Assembly: GCA_030694465.1 (NCBI GenBank)
Contig: JAUXYJ010000103.1
Span: 1-27,056 of the forward strand
Reading direction: 5' to 3'
DNA: 27,056 bases
DNA from: Deltaproteobacteria bacterium
GTDB taxonomy: Bacteria; Myxococcota_A; Polyangia; Polyangiales; Ga0077539
Under the pieces are notes generated by a model, which did no database searches, was not told the origin of the DNA, and worked only from the letters and a program-made list of their open reading frames with translations. Positions 3,538 to 22,114 of the stretch are shown one piece after another (position 1 is the first letter of the stretch; the number at the start of each line of letters is the position of its first letter). Both the position numbers and the translations under genes were made by a program.

Positions 3538-4926
3538 CTACTCGCTCGGCTCGTCCTCGTCGTCACCGCTCCGCCGGATCCCCAGGGCGCGCATCTTTTT
3601 GTAAAAATGCGACCGCTCGAGCCCTAAATCACGTGCCGCGTGCGTGGCGTTTCCCTTGTGGTGATCGAGCGCGCGCTGGACGAAGTCTCGCTCGGCGCTC
3701 TCGGTCATTTCGCGCAGCGACAAGCCCGGTCGGTAATACCCATCGGCGCTCGCACCCGCAGAGCCTCCGGTGACCGCGCGCACGTCGTGCTCATCGATCA
3801 CGTCGTGGGTCGTGAGAATCACCAAGCGCTCGACGAGGTTCTTGAGCTCGCGCACGTTGCCCGCGAACGACTGCTTGGCCAACAAGGTCATGGCCGAGGG
3901 CTGGATGCTCTTGAGCGAGCGATCATTGGCCTCGCAGCTCGCGGGCAAAAACGCCGAGACCAGCAGCGGCACATCTTCGCGTCGCATCCGCAACGGCGGA
4001 ACGTGAATGTTCAGCACGTTGAGCCGATCGTACAAATCCGCGCGAAATCGCCCGGTACTCACGTCACTCACGAGGTCTCGATTGGTCGCCGCTACGATGC
4101 GCACATTCACCTTGTGGACCTCGTGCCCGCCCACGCGCTCAAGCTCGCCTTCTTGCAGCACCCGCAGGAGCTTGGCCTGCATCGCGGCGGGCATGTCTCC
4201 CACCTCGTCCAAGAACAGCGTGCCCCCGTGCGCGCGCTCGAATTTGCCCCGACGCAACCGCGCTGCGCCCGTAAAAGAGCCGGCCTCGTGGCCAAAGAGC
4301 TCGCTCTCGATGAGCTCTGCGGGGACGGCTGCGCAGTTGAGCTTCTCAAGCGGCCCCTGCGCGCGCTTAGAGCCCTCGTGAACCGCCCGCGCGACGAGCT
4401 CTTTGCCGGTGCCACGCTCGCCCGTGACCAGCACGGTGGCGTTGGCGTTGGCAGCGAGACGCACGCGCTCGCGCAGCTCGCGCATGGTGCTGCTGTCGCC
4501 CAAGAGCCCCGAGCCTACGCCGGTCAATCGCCTGAGCTTCTTGTTCTCGGCCGAGAGCCGCACGAGCTCGAGCGTGTTGGCGATCGTGAGCAAGAGCTTG
4601 TCGGTCGAGAGCGGCTTCTCAAGAAAGTCCTGCGCGCCCAGCCGCGTCGCTGACACCGCGGTCTCGATGGTGCCGTGCCCAGACATCACGATCACCGGGG
4701 TATCAATGCCCTGTGCACGCGCGCGCTCGAGCACCGCGAGGCCGTCTAAGCCCGGGAGCTGCACGTCCATCAAGACAAGGTCATGCGCACGCGAGCCCAT
4801 GCGATCAAGCGCGCTGGGCCCGTCGACCGCAGAGTCTACGTCGTAGCCCTCGACTTTGAGCGCACTGCGAATGGTACGAACGATATTCGGCTCGTCGTCC
4901 ACAACCAGAATGGATGCACGTCCCAC
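3538..4926 (-). CDS. Sigma-54-dependent transcriptional response regulator (NtrC/AtoC family): receiver, AAA+ sigma-54 activation domain and a Fis-type HTH
   Basis: Receiver ILVVDDEP...DLVLMDVQLPGLDG. Walker A GERGTGKE, the GAFTGA-type loop ESELFGHEAGSFTGA, and LFLDEVGDM. C-terminal HTH ATHAARDLGLERSHFYKKMRALGI. The ORF track extends to 4965 (GTG). GTG at 4926 is the more plausible start, six residues ahead of ILVVDD. Confidence 0.85.
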   Translation of the reverse strand: MGRASILVVDDEPNIVRTIRSALKVEGYDVDSAVDGPSALDRMGSRAHDLVLMDVQLPGLDGLAVLERARAQGIDTPVIVMSGHGTIETAVSATRLGAQDFLEKPLSTDKLLLTIANTLELVRLSAENKKLRRLTGVGSGLLGDSSTMRELRERVRLAANANATVLVTGERGTGKELVARAVHEGSKRAQGPLEKLNCAAVPAELIESELFGHEAGSFTGAARLRRGKFERAHGGTLFLDEVGDMPAAMQAKLLRVLQEGELERVGGHEVHKVNVRIVAATNRDLVSDVSTGRFRADLYDRLNVLNIHVPPLRMRREDVPLLVSAFLPASCEANDRSLKSIQPSAMTLLAKQSFAGNVRELKNLVERLVILTTHDVIDEHDVRAVTGGSAGASADGYYRPGLSLREMTESAERDFVQRALDHHKGNATHAARDLGLERSHFYKKMRALGIRRSGDDEDEPSE

Positions 4927-4996
4927 AAGCGTCAGTGTATGCGACAACGCCCGCTCGCCACGCACACTCTTTGCAACCGCTCACCCATTGTCCGCG

Positions 4997-11222: not shown

Positions 11223-12593
11223 TTACGCGGCCGCCGACTGGGTGGCCTCTGGGGCGCTCTTGGTGCCACGCGAGAGGTCTGCGCGCGTGGGCAACTCGAT
11301 CACAACGCGCGCTCCGCCGTTGGGAGTGTTCTCTGCGCGCACTGAGCCACCGTGCGCCTCGGCGATGCGTCGCACGAGCGAGAGCCCAAGCCCGACCCCG
11401 CGTGCCTCGCTCTCGCGTGCACGTTGGCCGCGATAGAAAGCCTCGAACACGCGCTCGCGGTCATCGTGGTCAAACCCATCGCCTTCGTCCTCGACGGCAA
11501 ACGCGATGGTGTCTCTCGCGGCGCCCTCGCTCACCCGAAGAATCACGGTTCCGCGGCCATATTTGCGGGCATTGTCGAGCAGTGCGCCGAGCGCGCGCGA
11601 GAGCAGCGTAGGGTCTGCGTGGACCACATTGAGGGTGCTGTCCATCTTGACCGCTTCGCTCGGGAGGCTCGCGCGATCTGCGGCACGCTCTGCCACTTCG
11701 CGTGGGTCCAACGCGCGCCGCGAGAGCGCAGAGAACTCTAGCCGTGCGCTCGCCAAGAGCTCACCCACGAGCGAGTCCATCTCGAGCACCTCGGCCTCGA
11801 TCTCATCGAGCGGGTCTTTGCCGCTGCCCGGCGCGCTGCCGTCGCGAGCCATCTCGAGCAAGATCCTGACGCGGGCGAGCGGTGTGCGCATTTCGTGCGA
11901 AACTGCAGCCAAAAGCTGCCTCTGCTCTTTGACTTGGCGCTCAATCCGCGTGGCCATCTCGTTGATCGCGCGCGTGAGCTCGCCGACCTCGCCTGGGTGC
12001 GTGTGACAGAGGTTTGCCCGACGCGAGAGGTCGCCTTCGCCGAGCGCTTGCGCGACGCGTGTGAGCTCTTCGATGGGGCGCGACAAGCGATGTGCGACCT
12101 TGTTTGAGATCGCCCAGAGCATCAATCCGCCTGCCAAAAGTGTGATCAATGTGCGCCAGGGCGCGCCCTGCATGCGGGTCCGTGTGAGCGAGATCTCGAC
12201 GGTGCCCAGCGCGTGCCCTTCGCGATCTCGCACCGCGGTTGTCCAGTGGGGCACGAGGCCACCGAGGCCGCGCGCAAAGCCGTGCTCGGTGATCACTTGG
12301 CCACGGAGGTCACGCACGCGCACACCAAATCCGAGGTCTTGCCCATACGAGCGCGCGAGCTCGTCGCGGCCCGCAGAGTCATCCCAGACCCGCGCGAATC
12401 CTGCAGAGACAAAGCGCTCAACGCGCGCGCGCTCTGAGCGAATCGAGGTCTCGGGCGAGGCCACCATGTGCATGGACATGGCCACGGTGAGCGTGGTCAT
12501 CACGATGGCCACGCCGAACCACGCGAACAGCCGGCGATGGAGCCGTGCGCCCAGGTAGCAGCGAAGGCTGGGCATGGGTTTGGTGGGCATCAT
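11223..12593 (-). CDS. Two-component sensor histidine kinase (two TM helices, HAMP, HisKA, HATPase_c)
   Basis: H-box LAAVSHEMRTPLARV. N/G boxes VEDEGDGF and GVGLGLSLVRRIAEAHGG. TM helices are present. The start codon ATGATG overlaps the TGA stop of the regulator gene. Confidence 0.9.
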   Translation of the reverse strand: MMPTKPMPSLRCYLGARLHRRLFAWFGVAIVMTTLTVAMSMHMVASPETSIRSERARVERFVSAGFARVWDDSAGRDELARSYGQDLGFGVRVRDLRGQVITEHGFARGLGGLVPHWTTAVRDREGHALGTVEISLTRTRMQGAPWRTLITLLAGGLMLWAISNKVAHRLSRPIEELTRVAQALGEGDLSRRANLCHTHPGEVGELTRAINEMATRIERQVKEQRQLLAAVSHEMRTPLARVRILLEMARDGSAPGSGKDPLDEIEAEVLEMDSLVGELLASARLEFSALSRRALDPREVAERAADRASLPSEAVKMDSTLNVVHADPTLLSRALGALLDNARKYGRGTVILRVSEGAARDTIAFAVEDEGDGFDHDDRERVFEAFYRGQRARESEARGVGLGLSLVRRIAEAHGGSVRAENTPNGGARVVIELPTRADLSRGTKSAPEATQSAAA

Positions 12594-13288
12594 GGGTCTC
12601 CTTGGGCGGTGTCGCGCGCGAAGACATAGCCTACGCCGCGCACGGTCTTGATGAGCTTGGGTGCACGCGAATCGTCGCCTAATTTGGCTCTCAAGTGCGA
12701 GACATGCACGTCCACGGTGCGCTCGCCCACGACCACGTCGTCGCGGCCCGCGAGGGACAAGAGGGCGTCGCGAGGGACGACCTTTCCGGCGCGGCGCGCG
12801 AGCGCCAAGAGCAGGTCAAACTCGAGCCCTGTGAGGTCCAGATCGCGGCCTTCGAGCTTGGCTTGTCGTGAGCCGACGTCGATGTTGACCCCCGCCACGG
12901 TGATGTGTTCTCGGGAGCTGTCGGGCATCACGCGGCGAAGAACAGCACGGATTCGAGCCAGCAATTCACGCGGTGAAAATGGTTTGGCCAGGTAGTCATC
13001 GGCGCCGAGCTCGAGGCCCACGACGCGGTCGGTTTCGTCTCCGCGCGCGGTGAGCATCACGATGGGCACAGTGCTCTTGCCACGGATGCGTCGACACACC
13101 TCGAGCCCATCGATGCCGGGCATCATGATGTCGAGCAGCACGATGTCGTACGAGCCGCGATCGAAGGCCTCGATGCCCTTGAGGCCATCGGCGGCGCGCG
13201 TCACCAGCACACCGTTCTGTGTGAGATACGTGGCCAAAAGGTCCGAAAACCGGGGGTCGTCGTCAATCAAAAGGGCTCGCACTGTCAT
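12590..13288 (-). CDS. OmpR/PhoB-family two-component response regulator
   Basis: Receiver ALLIDDD...DIVLLDIMMPGIDG...LTARGDETDRVVGLELGADDYLAKPF. Winged-helix C-terminus TVRGVGYVF. Confidence 0.9.
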   Translation of the reverse strand: MTVRALLIDDDPRFSDLLATYLTQNGVLVTRAADGLKGIEAFDRGSYDIVLLDIMMPGIDGLEVCRRIRGKSTVPIVMLTARGDETDRVVGLELGADDYLAKPFSPRELLARIRAVLRRVMPDSSREHITVAGVNIDVGSRQAKLEGRDLDLTGLEFDLLLALARRAGKVVPRDALLSLAGRDDVVVGERTVDVHVSHLRAKLGDDSRAPKLIKTVRGVGYVFARDTAQGDP

Positions 13289-13364: not shown

Positions 13365-13577
13365 CTACTGCGTCACAGGACGAACACGGAGCGCGGGAGC
13401 CTGTGCCGTAGCCTCAAGCGCCGCGGTCGCGCACCTCCGCGCCATGTCATTGCGCGTAGCCTCTTGCATCGCTTGATGCTGTGCGCGCCTGTGTTTTAGC
13501 TGGTGAAACCCACTTGAGTAGCCACCCACAACGCCGAGGGCCAAGAGCCCCATGAGAATCTTTCGAGCCATAAACAT
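13365..13577 (-). CDS. Small (about 70 aa) single-pass membrane protein, co-operonic with the two-component system
   Basis: ATG with an AAGGAG Shine-Dalgarno 5 nt upstream (complement of 13578-13592). TM helix KILMGLLALGVVGGYSSGF. GC3 is lower than in neighbouring genes, so confidence is moderate. Confidence 0.4.
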   Translation of the reverse strand: MFMARKILMGLLALGVVGGYSSGFHQLKHRRAQHQAMQEATRNDMARRCATAALEATAQAPALRVRPVTQ

Positions 13578-13628
13578 TGTCACTCCTTCGAGAAAAACGT
13601 GGTTGATCCAGACCGAGACCCTGCAGGG

Positions 13629-14204
13629 CTATCCGCGGTAGGGCCCGCGAGGTCCGTGGTGGCCAAAGGGCCCACCGCGTCCGCCACGTCCGCCGCGAAA
13701 ACCCCACGGCCCTTCGGCGATGAGCTCGGCGAGCGTCTCTCGCTGATGGCCATCGAGCGCCTCGTGGACCTTGCGAAGTGAGTCTGTGATCACCTCATGG
13801 AGCGCATGCATGGACTGCTGATGGGACTGCTGCGCGGTGACAATCGCGGCCTCGTCAAAGACCTCTCCACGCACGGCGCGCGCGAGATCTTCACGAGACG
13901 CACGCACCGATTGCCAAGCATTTCGCAGGGCTTCGCGGTGCGCTTCAAAAGCCGCGATCATCACTTTTTCTTGTCCTGGCGTCGTGTCCAAGCGCTCAAA
14001 GAGCATGCGAAGCATCCAGCGCTCACGGGGGTGGGCGCCGGGGCCCCAACCACCCCACGGGCCGTGATCGCCGTGGCCGCGATGTCTGTCATGACCGCAG
14101 TGACCTTTGCCGCAACCGCCGCGACCGCAGCGTCCACGACGGCCTCCGAAAGAGAGCTTGGCGAGGGCCATGAGGCAGAGTGTTCCGAAGATAAATCCGC
14201 ACAT
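13629..14204 (-). CDS. Periplasmic CpxP/Spy/ZraP-like (LTXXQ / heavy-metal-resistance family) protein with a His-rich N-terminus and a Gly/Arg/His-rich C-terminus
   Basis: Signal/anchor MCGFIFGTLCLMALAKLSFGG. Two LTxxQ-like motifs (RLDTTPGQEKVM and LDGHQRETLAEL). His-rich GHCGHDRHRGHGDHG. C-terminal GFRGGRGGRGGPFGHHGPRGPY. It is the first gene of the operon containing the OmpR-type RR and the HK, the classic envelope or metal stress arrangement. Confidence 0.5.
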   Translation of the reverse strand: MCGFIFGTLCLMALAKLSFGGRRGRCGRGGCGKGHCGHDRHRGHGDHGPWGGWGPGAHPRERWMLRMLFERLDTTPGQEKVMIAAFEAHREALRNAWQSVRASREDLARAVRGEVFDEAAIVTAQQSHQQSMHALHEVITDSLRKVHEALDGHQRETLAELIAEGPWGFRGGRGGRGGPFGHHGPRGPYRG

Positions 14205-14644
14205 AGTAAGTACCTTGTGGTGCCTTTCGTGTGCGCAATGACAGGCGCTCTCAGCGAAGAGCGCGCTTGCACGGCTGCGATACCGATCACTGCGACTCCC
14301 TCAGTGATGCATCTCGGATTGTGAAGACGTCAGGGGCCGCTCTGTAAACAACTGTGAATCCGTATGCGCCCCCCCTAGCCCCGCGCGAACAGAGGACACA
14401 GATGGTTGTCAACGCAACGACTACTGCACCGAACGAACCTTCACTCTAACGAAGGCACTCTACGGTGCGGGTTCCCAGACTGAATCCACAGGCGAGTGAG
14501 CCGGTGAGACAAGTTGTCACTGCGTGTCAGCGAGCGGATGACAACACGTCAATCGACCTGACAATTCGCTAATCGAATCAATTTTCGGAACAGCGCTCTC
14601 AACCAGCGCGTTGCACATACAACCCAGTGAGAGCGCAGCAACCA

Positions 14645-14662
14645 CTGCACCCCCCGGTGCAG
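14645..14662. other. Hairpin CTGCACC-cccc-GGTGCAG inside a 650-bp low-GC non-coding region
   Basis: 7-bp perfect inverted repeat with a 4-nt loop, read directly. No U-tract follows. Confidence 0.25.
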
Positions 14663-14858
14663 GTCTTCTGGGTAAAGCCACTCGGTAGTTTCTATTATAC
14701 CGACAAAGACATCTAGTTTACTGAACAACCTCGCGCTACAGTCGGACCTCGAACACCGAGGCCGCTGAGCGTGTATCGGTCGGTGAACGTGATCGCCGTG
14801 TTGCGATGTTCTGCACACGACTCACTCACGCGCGCCGCCAGAAAGAACGAGTTAAGTC

Positions 14859-15149
14859 ATGCAAGCACTTCTGGTTGGAGGAGATTACGTCGAGCCGCTG
14901 ATCGGGACCCTCAAGGCGCGTGGCTTTGAGCGCGTGCATCACTGGGATGGCCGCAAGCAGGGCGACACGCGAAAGTTGCTCCCGCAAGACGTTTCGCTGG
15001 TCGTTGTGCTCACGGACTACACGAGCCACCCGCTGCTTGAGCATCTGCGATCGCAGGCACGTCGTCGCGGGATCACCGTGGTCTATTCGCGCCGAAGCCT
15101 GGTCGAAGTCCGTCAACGCTTGGACGCCCAAGAGCTGCGGGCGGCGTAG
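14859..15149 (+). CDS. Small conserved hypothetical protein, DUF2325-like
   Basis: MQALLVGGDYVEPLIGTLKARGFERVHHWDGRKQGDTRKLLPQDVSLVVVLTDYTSHPLLEHL...VVYSRRS resembles the DUF2325 pattern (GGD..., HWDGRK, D.V.LTD..SH, S.RS). Family assignment is from memory. Confidence 0.5.
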   Translation: MQALLVGGDYVEPLIGTLKARGFERVHHWDGRKQGDTRKLLPQDVSLVVVLTDYTSHPLLEHLRSQARRRGITVVYSRRSLVEVRQRLDAQELRAA

Positions 15150-15409
15150 CGCGGCGCGTTGGGCAGTTGCACACAAATCCCAGCAGGTTCGCAGGAATTT
15201 CTGAGATTTGCAAACTGCACAACGGGCGTTGCGTTGCGTGTGAGTGCGCGTATCTTTTGGCCTCGCGCTGAGGGTCTCGGTGGACTTGTCACAGAGCCAC
15301 CACAGCACACCGGGGAAGCCACACAACTCATCCGCACCGATGCGCGGTCGCGGAAGGGACAAGCAAACCACTGGCTCCCCAAACCGACGCGCGAAGAAGA
15401 GCAATCACC

Positions 15410-15643
15410 ATGGCTGACACACTGAAAAAAGGCTCAAAGGGCGACAGCGTCAAGGCACTTCAAGAGAAGCTCGGGATGCTGGGCTACACGCTCGCGGCAG
15501 ACGGCGATTTTGGCAACGGCACCGAAGACGCAGTCCGCCAACTCCAGAAGTCCTTTGGCTACACCGTCGACGGCATTGTGGGCGACGGCACCATGTTTCT
15601 CGTCGACCAGCAGCTCGGCCTCGGCTGGAAGGCCAACGGGTAA
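15410..15643 (+). CDS. Small standalone peptidoglycan-binding (PG_binding_1) domain protein
   Basis: GDSVKALQEKLGMLGYTLAADGDFGNGTEDAVRQLQKSFGYTVDGIVGDGT matches the PG_binding_1 consensus (G..V..LQ..L...GY....DG.FG..T..AV..FQ...GL..DG.VG..T). GA-rich RBS GAAGAAGAG upstream of the ATG. Confidence 0.65.
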   Translation: MADTLKKGSKGDSVKALQEKLGMLGYTLAADGDFGNGTEDAVRQLQKSFGYTVDGIVGDGTMFLVDQQLGLGWKANG

Positions 15644-15731: not shown

Positions 15732-16406
15732 GTGTTGAACAACGGAGCCTCTCCGTATGCTCGCACAGTGACCCTCTCGCTCACTGTCGCAACACATCCG
15801 TCGCTCTGTTTGCAGCTTATCGCGACCCAGTGGCCCGCTGCCCTGGGCGGGCTCTCGAGCCCTGCGCTGGGGGCTGAACCTCCCGACGCAGCCTCGCTTC
15901 CGCGGGCCGACGACACGCTGCGAGGGCACGTGCGAGACCTCCTGCGGCACGGCGGGTTTAAACCCACGGGGCGCTCAAAGCCTTCGTCTGAGTACCTCTT
16001 GCGCGTGGCCAAAGAGCAGCCCCTCGCGGCCATCAACGTCGCGGTCGATCTGGCGAACTACGCCTCGCTTCACAGCGGGCTACCGATCTCGGTCGTGGAC
16101 CTCGACCGGACCGCGCTGCCGCTGGCTGTGCGCCTCGCGGCCCCGTCGGAGCAGTACGTGTTTAACGCCTCGGGCCAGGTCCTCGACGTCGCAAACCTGC
16201 TCTGTCTGCACGACGCGCTGGGGCCCTGCGCCAACGCCGTCAAAGACGCCCAGCGCACCAAAACCCACGCAGATACTCGCACAACGCTCACGCTGATTTG
16301 GGCACCTGTCGCATGCAGAGAGCACAGCGAGCGCACACGCGCGTGGCTCGATGCACGCTTCGCTGAGGCCCAAGGGCGCTCCCTCGCCGTCGCGATCGAG
16401 CGCTAG
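15732..16406 (+). CDS. Standalone B3/4 domain protein (PheT B3/B4-like tRNA-binding/editing fold, COG3382-like)
   Basis: INVAVDLANYASLHSGLPISVVDLDR...LAVRLAAPSEQYVF...VKDAQRTKTHADTRTTLTLIWAP resembles the B3/4 core (VD.xN..SL..GlP....DLD...g.l.vR.A..GE.f). The start is uncertain: 15732 is GTG and there is no in-frame ATG nearby. Confidence 0.45.
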   Translation: MLNNGASPYARTVTLSLTVATHPSLCLQLIATQWPAALGGLSSPALGAEPPDAASLPRADDTLRGHVRDLLRHGGFKPTGRSKPSSEYLLRVAKEQPLAAINVAVDLANYASLHSGLPISVVDLDRTALPLAVRLAAPSEQYVFNASGQVLDVANLLCLHDALGPCANAVKDAQRTKTHADTRTTLTLIWAPVACREHSERTRAWLDARFAEAQGRSLAVAIER

Positions 16407-16555: not shown

Positions 16556-16897
16556 ATGAACGCAGCCACGAAGCACTCGACCAGCACCACCTCTGCCCGC
16601 TCGACCCAGTCCATGCAGGTCCTCTCGTTGGTGCGTGTCGCGAGCACCCAGCGCAACCGTCGAGCCTCTTCGGTGCCTGCACGCGATCACCGTGGCAGCG
16701 CGCTTCACACCCTCGTGGGGTTTGCGCTGGGCGCGATGATCACGCTCGCTGTGATGTTGGCACACACGCTCGCGCCTACGCTCCGCGCGCTCTCGACCAG
16801 CACGCTCTTGCTGCCCATCGCGTGTGTGATCGGGGCGTGTCTCGTGCGCACCCTTGAGCGCGCTACGACCCAGCGTTATCGCAGCTCGACCGCGTAG
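16556..16897 (+). CDS. Possible small two-TM membrane protein
   Basis: ATG (MNAATKH...) inside ORF 16469-16897. Hydrophobic segments LVGFALGAMITLAVMLA and LLLPIACVIGACLV. It is convergent with the pseudokinase gene and overlaps its stop by about 20 nt. Weak support. Confidence 0.25.
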   Translation: MNAATKHSTSTTSARSTQSMQVLSLVRVASTQRNRRASSVPARDHRGSALHTLVGFALGAMITLAVMLAHTLAPTLRALSTSTLLLPIACVIGACLVRTLERATTQRYRSSTA

Positions 16898-19197
16898 TCG
16901 GTGTCCCAGGTCTCGTGCACAAAGGTAGGGAGCGCTACGGTGCGCACGGCAGCCTCGACACAAGCCCCAAGGGGGGTGTTGTGCAGGGCGGGACCAAAGA
17001 GCTCGACGCGCGCCACTTGGCCTGTCGAACCGGTAAACTGCACGGCAAAACGCGCCGTCATCGGCGCCGCGGGGTGACACCGAGCGCTCACACGGACCTG
17101 CATCGCGCGGCGAGCGTTTCCGCGCACGCGCCAATGCGGCGTCTGCTCGCCGTTGTGTCCGTCGACGCGCAAAAGGCCGTCTTCGGGCGACGGCGAAGCG
17201 TCTTCGGGCTCGACCGCAGGGCCTGCGTCTTCGGGCGCGCTGGGCGTGGGTTCGGGTAGCGCCACAGCAGCATCGGCGACCTCTGGCGTGGGCTGCGGCT
17301 CGGCGGCGTCTTGAGGCTCGGCGACCAAGGGAATTTGCAGGGCGTTTGCGTCTTCGCTGGCCTCGGAAGCGGGCTCCGTCACCGCGCCTGCGTCCTCGGT
17401 CAGCCCCGTGAGCGGGGGCGATCGCGGCGGATTGACCGAAGGGACCCCATTGAGCTTCGAGAACAAGAACGCGCCCCCGGCGATGCCGCCTACGAGCCCG
17501 ACGATCGCAGCCAAGACCACCACCATCGGACGCTTGGAGCCACGCGCGGCGTCCGGCGCTGCCCTCGCCGCAACGGGCACTGAGGGGCGCTTGGGCGCGA
17601 TGGGCATCGGCACCGGAATCCCCATGTCAAACAGTGGCGGCACCTCAATGTGCTCGCTGACGGCAGGGGACAACTCGACGCTGATCCCTGGCACCTCAAG
17701 GTCCATGGCGATGGCTGGAGCGTCGTCGTCCTCGGGATCGTGGCCCACTTCGAGCGCCGGGGGAGCGTCCGCCAGAGGGACCGGCCCCGGACTCTTAGAA
17801 GACCCAGAAGTGCTTGAAACTACAGGAAATTCTAAGATCTCATCTGTGACCTTCGGGTCTAGCGTGTCGAGGTCAATGTCAGTCAACTCAACCGAGTCAA
17901 CTGGGTCTTCGTCCTCGACGAGGTCAGCGAACAGCGCGGCGTCTGTCCGCTCGGTCTTCTCGGTCTCGAGAGGGCTGCTGGCCGCGATCGGGACGGACAG
18001 CACAGCGCTAGGAGGCCCGCTCATGGGCTCTAGCCCCAGCGACTCGGGCGCGATGCCCATGAGCGTCGATTTGCTCGCTCGCAAGGCCGGCCGAAGGGGC
18101 GGCATCGAGGGTGGGTGTCGTGCAGAGTCGGAGGGAGCCACTTCGGGAGCGGGAGCGTCGGCCGCAGCGACAGGCGCGACGCCCCTGAGAGTCGTGGTGG
18201 TCGAGACCTCTGGCGCCTCACTGGCGGACTTCGTCGCGCTCGCGAGGCTCGATGCGCTCGGGGATTTCGTTGCGCTCGCGAGGCTTGATGCGCTCGGGGA
18301 TTTCGTTGCGGAGGAGGGCAACGAGGGAGCGCGAACGGGCGATGGGATCGAGAGTTCGGGCACCGAAGGCGTGCGTGAAGAGGACTTAAGCCCCGAAATC
18401 GAAGGCGCCGCGGTGAGCGCTGCCGACAGCGCCTGGGCAAAGCTTAGACAGCTCGGAAACCGCGCCACGGGGACACTCGCCGTGGCACGCGCGAGGACAC
18501 GCGCGAGGGGCGTCGCTGCCGGGACGGGCGCGAGGAGCACTTCGGCCAATTGTCCAAGCGCGTAGCGGTCGGAGGCGGGCTGCGGCGAGCGGCCGGCGAC
18601 GTCTTCGGGTGCACGAAACGTCGCCTTGATTTGGGCCGCTTCGTGGACGTCTTCGACGCGCGCGGCAAGAAGAGCAGCAGCGAATCCCGCGTCAAGAATG
18701 CGGGGAGCGCGTGTTACGCGGTCGACGCGAATGGTGTCCAAGGACAGCAACAAGTGCACGATGGGCGGGCTGAGCGCGTGCATGGCGTCCATCGCTTCGC
18801 CCACCGCGCGGATGATCTCTAGCGCCTCTGCGCGAGGCAGCGAGCCCTCTTCGTCAAGCACCTCGCGCAAGGTGGGGCCATCCACCCACGAGGTCACAAT
18901 GACCGGAAATCCCATCTCGACGCCCGACGCGAGCAGCTTTGGGATGTGCGGAATACTGACCTTCGCGAGCCACTGCGAGCGTCGCGCGAACGCGTCGATG
19001 TACGCCGCGCTAGGCGCATCCGAGCGCAGCGTGGTGATGGAGACAATCTCGGTCTGGCGCTCGGTGTGATGACCGCGATAGGAGACCCAGGCTTCCGTCG
19101 CGTAGGCCTGCGCCTCTACGAAGTACTCACCCGCTACGACGTAGCCAGCGGGAAGGGTCCAGCTCGCATCCGAGTTCGTGACAGACATCGGCTGCAT
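16876..19197 (-). CDS. Membrane-anchored Ser/Thr protein kinase-like protein, probably a pseudokinase: N-terminal degenerate kinase domain, Ser/Ala/Pro low-complexity linker with a 12-aa tandem repeat, one TM helix, and a C-terminal extracytoplasmic Cys-containing domain
   Basis: The kinase-fold region has an APE motif (FRAPEDV) but lacks the G-loop and the VAIK Lys. It has HLLLSLDTIRV in place of HRDLKPEN and DAG in place of DFG. TM helix MVVVLAAIVGLVGGIAGGAFLF. The C-terminal domain is of unknown family. Confidence 0.7.
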   Translation of the reverse strand: MQPMSVTNSDASWTLPAGYVVAGEYFVEAQAYATEAWVSYRGHHTERQTEIVSITTLRSDAPSAAYIDAFARRSQWLAKVSIPHIPKLLASGVEMGFPVIVTSWVDGPTLREVLDEEGSLPRAEALEIIRAVGEAMDAMHALSPPIVHLLLSLDTIRVDRVTRAPRILDAGFAAALLAARVEDVHEAAQIKATFRAPEDVAGRSPQPASDRYALGQLAEVLLAPVPAATPLARVLARATASVPVARFPSCLSFAQALSAALTAAPSISGLKSSSRTPSVPELSIPSPVRAPSLPSSATKSPSASSLASATKSPSASSLASATKSASEAPEVSTTTTLRGVAPVAAADAPAPEVAPSDSARHPPSMPPLRPALRASKSTLMGIAPESLGLEPMSGPPSAVLSVPIAASSPLETEKTERTDAALFADLVEDEDPVDSVELTDIDLDTLDPKVTDEILEFPVVSSTSGSSKSPGPVPLADAPPALEVGHDPEDDDAPAIAMDLEVPGISVELSPAVSEHIEVPPLFDMGIPVPMPIAPKRPSVPVAARAAPDAARGSKRPMVVVLAAIVGLVGGIAGGAFLFSKLNGVPSVNPPRSPPLTGLTEDAGAVTEPASEASEDANALQIPLVAEPQDAAEPQPTPEVADAAVALPEPTPSAPEDAGPAVEPEDASPSPEDGLLRVDGHNGEQTPHWRVRGNARRAMQVRVSARCHPAAPMTARFAVQFTGSTGQVARVELFGPALHNTPLGACVEAAVRTVALPTFVHETWDTDYAVELR
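18229..18310. repeat. 36-bp tandem direct repeat, 2.3 copies with two mismatches, inside the pseudokinase linker; it encodes ATKSPSASSLAS twice
   Basis: TTCGT(C/T)GCGCTCGCGAGGCT(C/T)GATGCGCTCGGGGAT repeated. Read directly. Confidence 0.7.
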
Positions 19198-20704: not shown

Positions 20705-22114
20705 TCAGCGCGCGATCGTCACGCGCGGGAGCGAATGGACCGAGAGCCAAATCACAGGCAGATCGTTCTCGCTCTGCGCCGAGAGCACGCGGGCGAGCGC
20801 TTGTTCGCCCACGTCCATGAGCCCCGCGAGGACCCTGTTGCGTGTGCGAGGGATGTACCCAAGCATCTCAGCGCGCGAGGTCTTGATCGCGATCGCGCGG
20901 TCGTCGTGCGTGTTTTGCCTCTCGCGCTCAAGCACGAGCGCGTCGCCCTCGGCGAGCGAACCCAGCGCAGCACGCGCCTGGTGAAACTGAGCTCCCGCCA
21001 CCGAGCACTCGAGCACCGCGACCGGGCGCGGCGCGACAGGCCACGTGAGGGTGTGATCTTCGGGCAGCCACGGAGTGCATTCTCTCACTGAAATCGCAGT
21101 GACATCGTCACCACGCTGGTGCCGCAATTGGTCCCCCACACGGAGCCCTAGCGAGGCCAGCGCGACGTCGCCGTGTCTGCGCCCAACGCCCTCGGACCAC
21201 GAGAGGTCAAAGCGCGTTTGTCGCACCCATTCGGCCAGCGAGAACACGCTCGCGACGCCTTGATGCTCGGCAGAGGGGTGCTCGCTCTGCAATCGCCCGA
21301 TGAGCATCTCGAGGTGCGCCAGCGTCTGCGCTCCGCGGAGCCACACGGTCCCTAGGAGCGCGCGCTCTCGCTGCATCTGAGAGAGCGCAAAGAGGTAGGC
21401 TCCTTGCGGGTGGTCCCAGCAATAATCCATACGATCGGCTTCTAAGAGCGTCCGCGCGACCACCCGCGGCGCGAGCACTGGGTCGTGCTGTGCCATGCGG
21501 TGTAGCGCGCTCGCCGTGGCCATCGGAGCGCCCCGCTGCGCGAGCCGATGCGCGGCCAATAAGTATACCGCGGCGGCGCTTCGGATGTCTCCGCGAGGGT
21601 GCTCAAGCGCGCCACGGAGCGCACGCTCGGCTCGCCCCTCGGCGACCCCCGCGGCGGTCCACGCGAGGGCAGCGAGCGAGTACACTCTGCGCTCGCCCGC
21701 GAAGTCTTCACCGAAGGCATTTCGCCTGAGGATTTGCTCCCAAAAGGCAACCTTCTCGGCATCATCGTCTCGCTGCATGCCGAGCAGACAGAGAAACTGC
21801 CGCTCAAGCCAGGGCTCATCGACCGGCGCGTCCACCGCATAGCGCGCGCCGAGCCACGAGAGCAAAAGATCGCGCTCTTCGTCTCGCGTCTGCACGACGT
21901 GCGGTGTGGGCCCCAGTCCCAGCGACACGAGGTCCTGTTGGCGCAATCGGTCCTGCAAAAACGCAGGCCGTTGCACCCGATGCTGGTGCGCACGCTCGTA
22001 GCTCTTGAGCGCCGTCATCGCGCGCCGGACGTCACGCCCCGCGGTAGAGATCACGTGGCTGGGTTCGCGCGCGGCGCGGTGCCACAGGCTGAGTGGGTCA
22101 TGCGCGAGTTGCAT
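20705..22114 (-). CDS. Protein with a C-terminal HIRAN domain and an uncharacterised alpha-helical N-terminal region of about 370 aa
   Basis: C-terminus VAGAQFHQARAALGSLAEGDALVLERERQNTHDDRAIAIKTSRAEMLGYIPRTRNRVLAGLMDVGEQALARVLS matches the HIRAN pattern (G.........L..G..L.L.RE..N..D.nAI.v......lGYiPr..a..La.l.D.g). The N-terminal part matches no family I recognise. Confidence 0.6.
   Translation of the reverse strand: MQLAHDPLSLWHRAAREPSHVISTAGRDVRRAMTALKSYERAHQHRVQRPAFLQDRLRQQDLVSLGLGPTPHVVQTRDEERDLLLSWLGARYAVDAPVDEPWLERQFLCLLGMQRDDDAEKVAFWEQILRRNAFGEDFAGERRVYSLAALAWTAAGVAEGRAERALRGALEHPRGDIRSAAAVYLLAAHRLAQRGAPMATASALHRMAQHDPVLAPRVVARTLLEADRMDYCWDHPQGAYLFALSQMQRERALLGTVWLRGAQTLAHLEMLIGRLQSEHPSAEHQGVASVFSLAEWVRQTRFDLSWSEGVGRRHGDVALASLGLRVGDQLRHQRGDDVTAISVRECTPWLPEDHTLTWPVAPRPVAVLECSVAGAQFHQARAALGSLAEGDALVLERERQNTHDDRAIAIKTSRAEMLGYIPRTRNRVLAGLMDVGEQALARVLSAQSENDLPVIWLSVHSLPRVTIAR

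Follow-up and report, generated by a model that had tools for sequence, protein, structure and literature searches.

The DNA analysed here (the window) is a stretch of 27,056 nucleotides from a Polyangiales-type myxobacterium, in which a gap of 654 bp separates two divergent operons (Table 1); every other gap in the window measures 260 bp or less. The left operon is read on the minus strand and starts with a gene of the CpxP/Spy family, followed in order by a small membrane ORF, an OmpR/PhoB-family response regulator (12590–13288) and a HAMP histidine kinase. The CpxP-like protein belongs to a periplasmic family, has an N-terminal region rich in Cys, His and Gly, and its homologs carry the NCBI name “periplasmic heavy metal sensor”. 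These homologs have 184–195 aa and match with 100% query coverage, which supports the long form of the gene. One gene caller shortened it to 128 aa, and an exact-protein look-up of the 191-aa product returned no record because gene callers had truncated its gene. The right operon consists of the DUF2325 and PG_binding_1 genes; the third gene of this cluster, B3_4, varies between lineages and was seen only in the window and in one relative, L023. A literature search on DUF2325 returned passing mentions only. Both gene starts that bound the gap are supported by conserved N-termini, i.e., MCGFxxGTLCL at the CpxP-like start (14204, minus strand) and MRAL/MQAL..GGDY at the DUF2325 start (14859, plus strand) in all relatives.

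Table 1. Features of the spacer and the genes next to it (window coordinates).
Feature	Position	Strand	Remarks
CpxP/Spy-family (Metal_resist/LTXXQ) gene	13629–14204	-	First of left operon; Pfam PF13801 and PF07813
Spacer	14205–14858		654 bp
Degenerate internal duplicate of 14589–14616	14240–14272	+	Inside window-specific insertion
Block A, operator-like, 41 nt	14318–14360	+	Three GT(G/A)AA half-sites at offsets 0/+23/+33; nine-lineage consensus
Third half-site TGTGAAG, promoter-proximal	14320–14326	+	Fixed 23-nt offset from tandem box in nine lineages
Tandem repeat GTAAA-CAACT-GTGAA, CpxR-box-like	14344–14358	+	Predicted to be bound by the OmpR-family regulator of the left operon
TGACA(A)/TTGTCA cluster, candidate second operator	14404–14586		Members at 14406–14411 (-), 14539–14544 (+), 14559–14564 (+)
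Inverted repeat GACAAgTTGTC; palindrome GACAAGTTGTC of the TGACA cluster	14508–14518		Named earlier, present
Block AATTCGCT of the TGACA cluster	14563–14570		
Inverted repeat ATTCGctaatCGAAT	14564–14578		Named earlier, present
AT-rich block AATCGAATCAATTTTCGG	14572–14589		Named earlier, present
GGAACA-N15-GCGTTG, bipartite ECF-sigma-type promoter candidate	14587–14613	+	Faces DUF2325
9-bp perfect inverted repeat GCGCTCTCA/TGAGAGCGC	14593–14636	+	Window-specific; no counterpart in relatives
Hairpin CTGCACC-cccc-GGTGCAG	14645–14662	+	Window-specific, within insertion relative to all relatives; no U-run
AT-rich block TCTATTATACC; -10-like box TATTAT at 14693–14698	14691–14701	+	Named earlier, present; aligns with CTATAnT of the relatives' sigma-70-like promoter
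Conserved dyad/small stem ATCTAGTTTACTGAACA	14711–14727	+	TTCR-N6-YGAAC in relatives; left arm degenerate here
Leader hairpin region, core stem CGGACCTCG-aacac-CGAGGCCG at 14743–14764	14731–14790	+	dG -28.1, z -2.7
DUF2325 gene	14859–15149	+	Right operon; Pfam; pair with PG_binding_1 adjoins spacer in all syntenic loci
PG_binding_1 gene	15410–15643	+	Right operon; Pfam

The same gene order, with kinase, regulator, small ORF and CpxP-like gene on one side of the spacer and DUF2325 and PG_binding on the other, recurs in Polyangiales/Myxococcales, in six or more further lineages, whose homologous spacers measure 401–443 bp. All organisms compared are metagenome-assembled. Locus L001 is 100% identical to the window, comes from the same organism and was left out as having no comparative value, and a metagenome scan with a coding anchor yielded three loci, two of which end at the spacer. 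When the spacers were aligned globally with MAFFT, the motifs of the window were misplaced around its insertions, and a motif-anchored comparison was used instead. In this comparison 7–10 lineages share several motif blocks with unchanged order and strand, which supports the complex regulatory region that the earlier note had offered as one of three alternatives; the other two, a non-coding RNA gene and a scar of horizontal acquisition, did not hold up (see below). The surplus of about 230 bp in the window is a lineage-specific insertion, in part a local duplication.

The description of the gap as about 650 bp without a credible ORF was confirmed. Four ORFs of at least 40 aa overlap it, none of which matched Pfam at E ≤ 0.1, and the GC content by codon phase stays flat across the gap, as opposed to a strong periodicity in the genes on either side. 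A decayed gene, or a small protein-coding gene that has been overlooked, might be sought in the 89-aa ORF on the minus strand (14549–14818) or in the three shorter ones, and similarity between the translated spacers was indeed detectable. However, the same DNA blocks gave translated matches in every one of the six frames, and this places the conservation at the level of the nucleotides and not of a protein. The indels that distinguish the spacers of different lineages are not multiples of three, and the 89-aa ORF sits in insertions found only in the window. Together with the missing codon periodicity and Pfam matches, these observations make a coding origin of the gap very improbable.

With 55.8% GC, the spacer is the lowest of all 654-bp windows that can be placed on the 27 kb (mean 65.2%, sd 2.8), which confirms the low GC content reported earlier; the flanks, put at about 68% in the same report, were measured at 61–65% immediately beside the spacer. 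The AT-rich blocks, the hairpin and the short inverted repeats that had been listed were all located in the sequence. The composition is not a special mark of this gap, because the remaining intergenic gaps of the window are similarly low (49–70%, pooled 58.6%) and so are the homologous spacers of the relatives (58–60%, against 66–69% in their flanks). Non-coding DNA of this genome simply has such a low GC content, and only the length of the spacer is unusual. At a genome GC of about 65%, a drop of 10 points is the normal look of non-coding DNA and no evidence for foreign origin.

The view that the gap is a scar or boundary left by the horizontal acquisition of a DUF2325/PG_binding/B3_4 cluster could point to the lowest GC of the window and to the downstream B3_4, found only here and in L023. 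It was refuted by the yardstick that the earlier note had itself set, i.e., the same spacer between conserved flanking genes in related genomes. DUF2325 and PG_binding lie beside the CpxP-like operon with a homologous spacer in six other lineages, B3_4 alone being variable, and an arrangement conserved in at least six lineages indicates that the genes were inherited together. The spacer also equals other intergenic DNA in GC content, and the marks of a genomic island were absent: neither a tRNA, an integrase nor a flanking repeat was found near it, the rest of the window shares only chance 11–14-mers with it and holds no dispersed copy, and a search of the PLSDB plasmids in distant mode gave zero matches. 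Horizontal acquisition was rejected on the conserved synteny, and its probability is close to nil. A false lead is thereby removed, in that nothing here indicates horizontal transfer or a new RNA gene.

On the side of the CpxP-like gene, the spacer contains Block A, whose ungapped consensus CtGTgAAGaC..GAGcGGtctc.gcGTGAACaAgTGTGAAG holds in nine lineages and which was the only block picked by an unbiased 10-mer footprint (7 positions vs 1.5 in shuffles). It lies 115–155 bp upstream of the CpxP-like start codon in the window. The block stays with the CpxP-like operon even where the gene opposite has changed or was not seen, as in L023, which carries a 1-Cys peroxiredoxin gene in the place of DUF2325, and in L022. 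Within Block A, the pattern GTRAA-N5-GTRAA has a single match in 27 kb (0.03 expected) and one copy per locus in the relatives, always inside the spacer; the form GTGAAC-N4-GTGAAG is conserved in nine lineages, and in every lineage the CpxR-box-like site precedes the CpxP-like start by 100–160 bp. The tandem has the form of an OmpR/PhoB operator, with direct-repeat half-sites of 5–6 nt and a period of 10–11 bp, and like such operators it stands before the operon that encodes the regulator and has been conserved along with it. The published CpxR site is GTAAA-N4-8-GTAAA (PMC5063474), and MtrA binds 6-nt repeats 5 nt apart (PMC5650626). The resemblance to a CpxR box is an analogy only, the adjacent regulator not being a CpxR ortholog.

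Between Block A and the start codon, inspection by eye and pattern searches gave no convincing -10 box from which the CpxP-like operon could be transcribed, nor a promoter of sigma-70, sigma-54 or ECF type, and the sigma-54 pattern TGGCA-N6-TGC had zero matches in any spacer. The minus-strand TTCACA might serve as a -35 element for this operon, with nothing -10-like found 16–18 nt downstream of it.

A close parallel is the cpxP–cpxRA locus of E. coli, where a CpxP/Spy-family gene likewise neighbours the genes of a HAMP kinase and an OmpR-family regulator. The GTAAA-N5-GTGAA found upstream here is one base off the CpxR consensus GTAAA-N5-GTAAA, and by analogy autoregulation would be the expected logic. 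In contrast to E. coli, the cpxP-like, regulator and kinase genes are co-directional and apparently form one operon, an extra half-site stands at a 23-nt offset, and the divergent partner is the DUF2325/PG_binding operon. The two signalling proteins fall below the NCBIfam equivalog cutoffs for CpxR (180.2 bits, cutoff 341) and CpxA. The best NCBIfam model for the regulator is MtrA, also below its cutoff (229.7 vs 300), and its closest solved structures are those of MtrA (best), RegX3 and BaeR; judged by these scores, it is a generic OmpR/PhoB-family member and not a CpxR ortholog. The operators of MtrA, OmpR and PhoB share with the tandem their two direct repeats of 5–6 nt and the 10–11-bp period, whereas the Streptomyces MtrA site, (G/T)T(G/A)ACC-N5-GT(G/T)AC, differs from the half-sites GTGAAC/GTGAAG seen here, and MtrAB is actinobacterial and stands in another gene context. 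A further relative in design is ZraP–ZraSR, in which a two-component system also accompanies a periplasmic Metal_resist/LTXXQ protein rich in Cys/His metal ligands. There, however, zraP is transcribed from a sigma-54 promoter and ZraR activates sigma-54; unlike ZraR, the regulator here is OmpR-type, and TGGCAC-N5-TTGC is absent from every spacer.

No k-mer family other than (C)TGACA(A) is common to the middle segments of the spacers in six lineages, and the window has 5 copies of it against 0.39 expected. Palindromes of the form GACA-N3-TGTC are present in the window and in L002, L016, L024 and L005–7. This TGACA(A)/GACAnnnTGTC cluster is probably the operator of a second factor.

On the side of DUF2325, the bipartite element GGAACA-N15-GCGTTG, with 12 specified bases, matches the window once and none of 100 shuffles, whereas the short pattern GGAAC-N17-CGT is not significant alone (0.87 expected). 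One copy stands in every syntenic locus, with N16 in L018 and an unrelated spacer in L026, and none was found in the non-syntenic loci, where DUF2325 or the CpxP-like gene has another context. The two boxes and their spacing are conserved, while the 15–16 nt between them differ across eight lineages. The motifs AAC and CGT, the hallmark of ECF promoters (PMC8103513), are separated by 17 nt, in keeping with the spacing of about 16–17 nt between ECF -35 and -10 boxes. No ECF sigma/anti-sigma pair (Sigma70_r2/r4) was found among the scanned ORFs of the window or the called genes of the related loci, which sets the locus apart from autoregulated ECF-dependent promoters, where the pair is adjacent. 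The missing gene does not exclude this promoter type, since members of a regulon need not adjoin the sigma gene. The element also resembles the EcfG-type promoter GGAAC-N16-17-CGTT, the boxes GGAAC(A) and (G)CGTT(G) standing at a distance of 17 nt from AAC to CGT around a variable spacer in eight lineages; EcfG is alphaproteobacterial, so that the resemblance is one of promoter type only.

In the window, the ECF-type element overlaps an internal duplication, the second, degenerate copy of which lies in the part of the spacer close to the CpxP-like gene. The two copies align with a local score of 30, a value reached by 0 of 500 shuffles (mean 12.1, maximum 26), and the degenerate copy is absent from the relatives, which have gaps in these alignment columns. 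Both this overlap and an alternative local alignment, in which CTCTCAAC..CAGCGCG of the window matches the relatives' sequence upstream of the -35 box, tell against the ECF-type promoter.

Between the ECF-type promoter, which in the relatives lies 130–143 bp from the DUF2325 start, and that start, the relatives possess a second promoter of sigma-70-like form, TTGTCA-N16-TATAnT (TTGTCC-N16-TATAAT in L026). The window retains the TATTAT at the homologous place without a -35 box at proper spacing, the nearest homologous sequence, TTCTGG, being about 21–22 nt away. Judged from this alignment, the window has lost an intact sigma-70-like promoter, the -35/-10 spacing being broken; the sigma-70 promoter scan did not call the box at 14691–14701 and gave a single weak, non-conserved promoter-like site at 14538–14565.

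The sequence that follows these elements is rich in inverted repeats. The hairpin at 14645–14662, which is followed by GTCTTCTGGG, was not called as an intrinsic terminator, and the terminator scan of the spacer returned only weak, non-conserved sites in numbers similar to shuffles. The conserved dyad is present in one copy per locus, with a perfect TTCAC-TTTA-GTGAA in L026. In the alignment, 94% of its cells are paired, as opposed to 28–54% when the arms are slid, and two pairs show double changes. Downstream of the dyad, 9 of 10 lineages have a hairpin whose relative position is constant although its stem sequence is not; L026 lacks it. RNAalifold recovered the small stem only, since the exact place of the second hairpin varies from lineage to lineage.

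These structures raise the question of whether the right half of the spacer acts as RNA. In one reading it is a cis-regulatory leader (an attenuator, a thermosensor or a ligand- or protein-binding element) that would control the translation or stability of the DUF2325 message, with the dyad and the hairpin working as RNA and not as DNA sites, an arrangement compatible with promoters elsewhere in the spacer. It can call upon the folding of the plus strand, with z of -3 to -3.9 against shuffles confined to 14525–14844 and exceeding that of the minus strand, as well as on the recurrent hairpin with its changing stems, on the small stem, where GC-to-AU double changes occur and variants give G-U rather than A-C, and on L023, where promoter and leader are kept together before a different gene. 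Against this, Rfam gave no match at any threshold, one lineage has no hairpin, and the long leader of the window is mostly a lineage-specific insertion without counterpart in the relatives. Short GC-rich hairpins are moreover common by chance, the z-scores of the individual leader hairpins are modest (-0.1 to -3.2, several above -1.5), and a palindromic site for a protein would account for the dyad just as well. A regulatory RNA leader thus appears unlikely, with some chance left to it.

Alternatively, the spacer could hold a free-standing small RNA gene, for example one dependent on an ECF sigma factor like the sigma-E-dependent MicA and RybB, which would start near 14620 and end in a hairpin. 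The ECF-type promoter candidate with stable hairpins after it and the unusual length of the spacer would suit such a gene. Yet no hairpin carries a U-run, and the terminator-like calls are weak and not conserved. With the ECF-type promoter so close to DUF2325 in the relatives, and a second promoter in between, there is no room for an independent conserved gene, and window and relatives have little in common in the sequence 3′ of the promoter. Rfam 15 gave zero matches at gathering thresholds over the whole window and at E ≤ 10 over 14100–14960, and ARAGORN found no tRNA or tmRNA. The non-coding RNA gene proposed earlier is therefore unsupported and seems decidedly improbable; with its position downstream of promoter-like elements, a structured 5′ leader of DUF2325 fits better than a free-standing RNA gene.

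The spacer is most likely a bidirectional promoter and operator region common to the two divergent operons, as far as can be read from its conserved motifs. The left operon is a Cpx-like sensor module for envelope or metal stress, in which the phosphorylated regulator would bind the three half-sites of Block A and so exert autoregulation, in the manner of CpxR at cpxP and cpxRA. In the other direction, the DUF2325–PG_binding operon would be transcribed from the ECF-sigma-type promoter, and the transcript would begin with a hairpin-rich leader, about 240 nt long. The dyad just after the -10-like box has a right arm, nTGAACA, that resembles the half-site of Block A, so that the rightward promoter may be a second target of the regulator. 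The TGACA cluster in the middle of the spacer would probably serve another factor, and the extra length of the spacer relative to its relatives stems from lineage-specific insertions, one of them the local duplication. The result, of modest practical value, is a candidate cis-element map for an uncharacterised module of uncultured Polyangiales that resembles Cpx and Zra and would respond to envelope or metal stress; it offers a candidate operator with three GTGAA-type half-sites and a candidate ECF-type promoter, and links the module to a DUF2325/PG_binding pair of unknown function.

A more speculative and rather unlikely extension is that the rightward elements, i.e., the ECF-type and sigma-70-like promoters, the GTGAA-type dyad and the leader hairpin, form a portable stress-responsive cassette of Polyangiales, perhaps including a cis-acting leader RNA or a dual-mode regulator. 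If so, the leader RNA would be previously undescribed, and the regulator would read GTGAA repeats in both tandem and inverted arrangement, coupling a Cpx-like sensor to both divergent operons. This rightward module precedes DUF2325 in most lineages and the 1-Cys peroxiredoxin gene in L023.

The spacer between the divergent CpxP-like and DUF2325 genes measures 654 bp, from the CpxP-like start at 14204 (−) to the DUF2325 start at 14859 (+), and both boundaries can be taken as secure from the protein N-termini, with MCGF(I/V)xGTLCL and M(R/Q)AL..GGDY, respectively, kept in all relatives examined. Homologs of the 191-aa CpxP-like query are full-length (184–195 aa, coverage 100%); one gene caller cut the protein to 128 aa, and such truncation, to ~126–128 aa, is frequent (L001, L005, L007) and makes the intergenic gap appear still longer (843 bp). 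Codon-phase GC showed strong periodicity in each flanking gene and none over the spacer, and no Pfam match was obtained for any of the four ORFs of at least 40 aa overlapping it, which confirmed the non-coding gap described in an earlier note on this DNA; the small features named there were likewise all found in their places. The same note had remarked on a low GC content between flanks of ~68%. The flanks measured 61–65%, and at 55.8% the spacer was indeed the lowest of all 654-bp windows in the 27 kb (mean 65.2%, sd 2.8), but it was not anomalous against the other intergenic gaps (49–70%, pooled 58.6%), i.e., its GC is normal for the non-coding DNA of this window. Homologous spacers in relatives have 58–60% GC versus 66–69% in their flanks. 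What is unusual is the length, the remaining gaps of the window all being at most 260 bp, and the spacer is probably a control region between divergent genes that is long but otherwise unremarkable.

Relatives were found via exact-protein look-ups with DUF2325 and CpxP-like homologs, combined with a DNA-pattern scan whose anchor was the sequence coding for the CpxP-like N-terminus; those with names are Polyangiales and Myxococcales MAGs, and the window itself belongs to a metagenome-assembled “Deltaproteobacteria bacterium”. L001 is identical (100%) to the window and stems from the same organism, and therefore gives no comparative information. The arrangement of histidine kinase (HK), response regulator (RR), small ORF, CpxP-like, spacer, DUF2325 and PG_binding was observed in six further lineages (L002/3/4/17, L005/6/7, L011/12/15/21, L016, L018 and L024/25), with spacers of 401–443 bp, and a seventh locus, known without its DNA, has a gap of 545 bp. 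At L023 the CpxP-like operon lies opposite a peroxiredoxin gene, L022 has just 353 bp of upstream DNA and no DUF2325, and L026, the nearest DUF2325 homolog (71% identity), has just 143 bp of upstream DNA. DUF2325 homologs in unrelated contexts (L008–10, L013) carried none of the spacer’s conserved motifs. One option of the earlier note, that the spacer is a scar of horizontal acquisition, is refuted by this co-inheritance of the spacer and its flanking genes; the spacer neither recurs elsewhere in the window nor matches a plasmid. The sole variable member of the “three-gene cluster” in that note is the B3_4-domain gene after PG_binding, which occurs only in the window and L023 and is replaced by a short hypothetical ORF in the remaining syntenic lineages.

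Global alignment of the window’s spacer with those of relatives gave 45–49% identity. MAFFT displaced motifs around three window-specific insertions, and element order was followed by a motif-anchored comparison, in which the conserved elements kept a fixed order across lineages. This fixed order favors another option of the earlier note, a “complex regulatory region”, and the spacer is quite probably a bidirectional regulatory region.

Coordinates of features in and around the spacer
Feature	Position	Strand	Remarks
NtrC-type sigma-54 activator gene	3538–4965	−	receiver, Sigma54_activat, HTH_8; no obvious tie to spacer
Small ORF	13365–13583	−	68–79 aa
CpxP/Spy-family gene	13629–14204	−
Folding window in CpxP-like gene	13845–13964	both	120 nt; z −2.9, −2.6
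Block A	14318–14360		ungapped 41-nt consensus CtGTgAAGaC..GAGcGGtctc.gcGTGAACaAgTGTGAAG; nine lineages incl. L022, L023
TGACA(A)/TTGTCA cluster	middle of spacer		some form GACAnnnTGTC palindromes; plus AATTCGCT block
GGAACA-N15-GCGTTG	14587–14613	+	1 match in window, 0 in 100 shuffles
9-bp inverted repeat	14593–14601/14628–14636		window-only
“Clean hairpin” of earlier note	14645–14662		window-only
−10-like TATTAT	14693–14698		within the earlier note’s TCTATTATACC; sole intact remnant of sigma-70-like promoter in window
Dyad TTCR-N6-YGAAC	14711–14726		directly downstream of −10-like box; left arm degenerate in window
Leader hairpin to DUF2325 start	~90 nt		window-only
Folding region past DUF2325 stop (15149)	15125–15244	+	z −3.65
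Terminator-like hairpin + T-run	15235–15252	+
B3_4-domain gene	15732–16406	+
773-aa protein gene	16876–19197	−
Cytochrome P450 gene	19256–20626	−
469-aa protein gene	20705–22114	−	C-terminal HIRAN domain; no obvious tie to spacer

The left operon (−) consists, in order, of a CpxP/Spy-family gene (PF13801, PF07813), a conserved ~70-aa ORF, an OmpR/PhoB-family response regulator and a HAMP/HisKA/HATPase kinase, and the right side (+) of DUF2325, a 77-aa PG_binding_1 protein and a B3_4-domain protein. The best NCBIfam model for the regulator was MtrA (229.7 bits vs a cutoff of 300), with 180 bits for the CpxR model (cutoff 341), and its nearest solved structures were MtrA, RegX3 and BaeR; the best models for the kinase were RstB/CpxA (~161 bits vs cutoffs of 478 and 486). 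Both are generic family members. In the CpxP/Spy-family protein, the conserved hydrophobic N-terminus (MCGFxxGTLCL) leads into a low-complexity stretch rich in Cys, His and Gly, RRGRCGRGGCGKGHCGHDRHRGHGDHGPWGGWGPG, a composition suggestive of metal binding. The small ORF, with an N-terminal hydrophobic helix and no Pfam or NCBIfam match, was called in the same position between the CpxP-like and response regulator genes at every related locus, and may be a membrane accessory to the two-component system.

Block A, an operator-like segment on the CpxP-like side of the spacer, includes GT(G/A)AA three times, as half-sites with offsets of 0, +23 and +33. An unbiased footprint (10-mers with at most one mismatch in at least 3/5 lineages) recovered exactly the Block A segments and none other, at 7 positions versus 1.5 in shuffles. 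The pattern GTRAA-N5-GTRAA has one match in the 27-kb window, where 0.03 are expected, and a single copy per related locus, always in Block A. The published CpxR site is GTAAA-N5-GTAAA, from which GTAAA-CAACT-GTGAA of the window differs by one base (PMC5063474), and in its overall layout the latter resembles sites of the MtrA type (PMC5650626). We infer that the left operon’s OmpR-family regulator would bind Block A at its tandem and proximal GT(G/A)AA half-sites, an assignment that we consider somewhat probable, and would autoregulate the operon of cpxP-like, small ORF, RR and HK in the manner of CpxR at cpxP/cpxRA. The main weakness of this model lies on the left side, where no convincing −10 or alternative-sigma promoter was found from Block A to the CpxP-like start. 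As in the Cpx (or Zra) system, a CpxP-family periplasmic protein would be tied to a two-component system that autoregulates through an operator, here a predicted one; unlike Cpx, the regulator and kinase fall below the CpxR and CpxA equivalog cutoffs and the gene order is different, and unlike Zra, the spacers have no ZraP-type sigma-54 site, nor was a sigma-54 promoter pattern found in the window’s spacer. The locus is not a strict member of the Cpx/Zra module.

Among the six lineages tested, the only k-mer family common to every middle segment was (C)TGACA(A), with 1–5 copies per lineage versus 0.2–0.4 expected; 4 of the 15 TGACAA copies of the window lie within the spacer, which makes up 2.4% of the sequence. 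This cluster is probably the site for a second factor.

On the rightward side, GGAACA-N15-GCGTTG is present once per syntenic locus (N16 in L018) and once in L026. The 15 nt between the two boxes are unrelated across lineages, the signature of a bipartite promoter, and the boxes carry the ECF-sigma hallmarks, AAC at −35 and CGT at −10 (PMC8103513). The element is missing from L022 and L023, and therefore belongs with the DUF2325 side. An ECF sigma factor encoded elsewhere would drive DUF2325 and PG_binding from this candidate promoter, whose ECF-type assignment we likewise lean towards; no cognate sigma factor was found among the ORFs scanned. Relatives have, in addition, a sigma-70-like TTGTCA-N16-TATAnT 68–71 bp upstream of the DUF2325 start, which would add a housekeeping-type input; L026 has TTGTCC-N16-TATAAT and L023 has TTGCAG-N17-TATATT. 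In the window, TATTAT and the homologous −35 remnant are ~5 nt too far apart, and this promoter looks disabled. In the dyad, 94% of cells paired versus 28–54% when slid, with double changes at two pairs; it is perfect in L026 (TTCAC-TTTA-GTGAA), and its right arm, nTGAACA, is similar to the Block A half-site. It might be an operator, perhaps bound by the left operon’s regulator, or else form a 5′-terminal stem. A GC-rich hairpin, differing in sequence each time, lies upstream of the ribosome-binding site in 9/10 lineages, and none is present in L026. At L023 (2080–3027, and also 701–1681, of that locus) a 1-Cys peroxiredoxin (AhpC-TSA/1-cysPrx_C) replaces DUF2325 opposite the CpxP-like operon, and upstream of this gene the sigma-70-like promoter is kept, together with a GTGAA-type dyad and the leader hairpin; PG_binding_1 and B3_4 genes are close by, without DUF2325. 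It is quite improbable that this rightward cassette, made up of promoter, dyad and leader, holds a novel cis-regulatory RNA or a dual-mode operator.

The earlier note had also proposed a non-coding RNA gene. The spacer folded better than shuffles on the plus strand (z −3.7, from 20 shuffles only; minus strand z −1.0), and in sliding windows the signal was limited to 14525–14844 (+), with z −3.0 to −3.9 and none in the left half. Against such a gene, Rfam gave no match to the spacer at any threshold, no tRNA or tmRNA was found, and a U-run was absent after every spacer hairpin. The well-folding region follows the promoter-like elements, with most of its plus-strand structure in window-specific sequence, and the simplest reading would be a structured 5′ leader, ~240 nt long and transcribed from the ECF-type promoter, rather than a separate RNA gene.

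About 230 bp of the window’s spacer have no counterpart in relatives. The segment 14240–14272 is a degenerate duplicate of 14589–14616 (~30 nt, imperfect; alignment score 30 vs a shuffle maximum of 26, 0/500), and the expansion is therefore at least partly a local duplication. Of the two copies, one overlaps the interval and −10 of the candidate ECF-type promoter, and the second falls within the CpxP-like gene’s 5′ UTR region; three copies of the 9-mer GCGCTCTCA, counting its complement, occur in the spacer (14245, 14593, 14628).

Outside the spacer, the only folding signal above shuffles in flanking coding sequence was within the CpxP-like gene. Unusually good folding was also seen directly past the DUF2325 stop, and the terminator-like hairpin called ahead of the PG_binding gene, in the 260-bp gap, may act inside the operon as an attenuator or partial terminator. 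Farther away, a 773-aa protein, which shows ATKSPSASSLAS-type repeats in tandem and an extended low-complexity region rich in Pro, Ala, Ser and Glu, and whose homologs in relatives give weak Pkinase matches, is followed by a cytochrome P450; synteny of these two genes with the locus holds in L002, L005 and L011.
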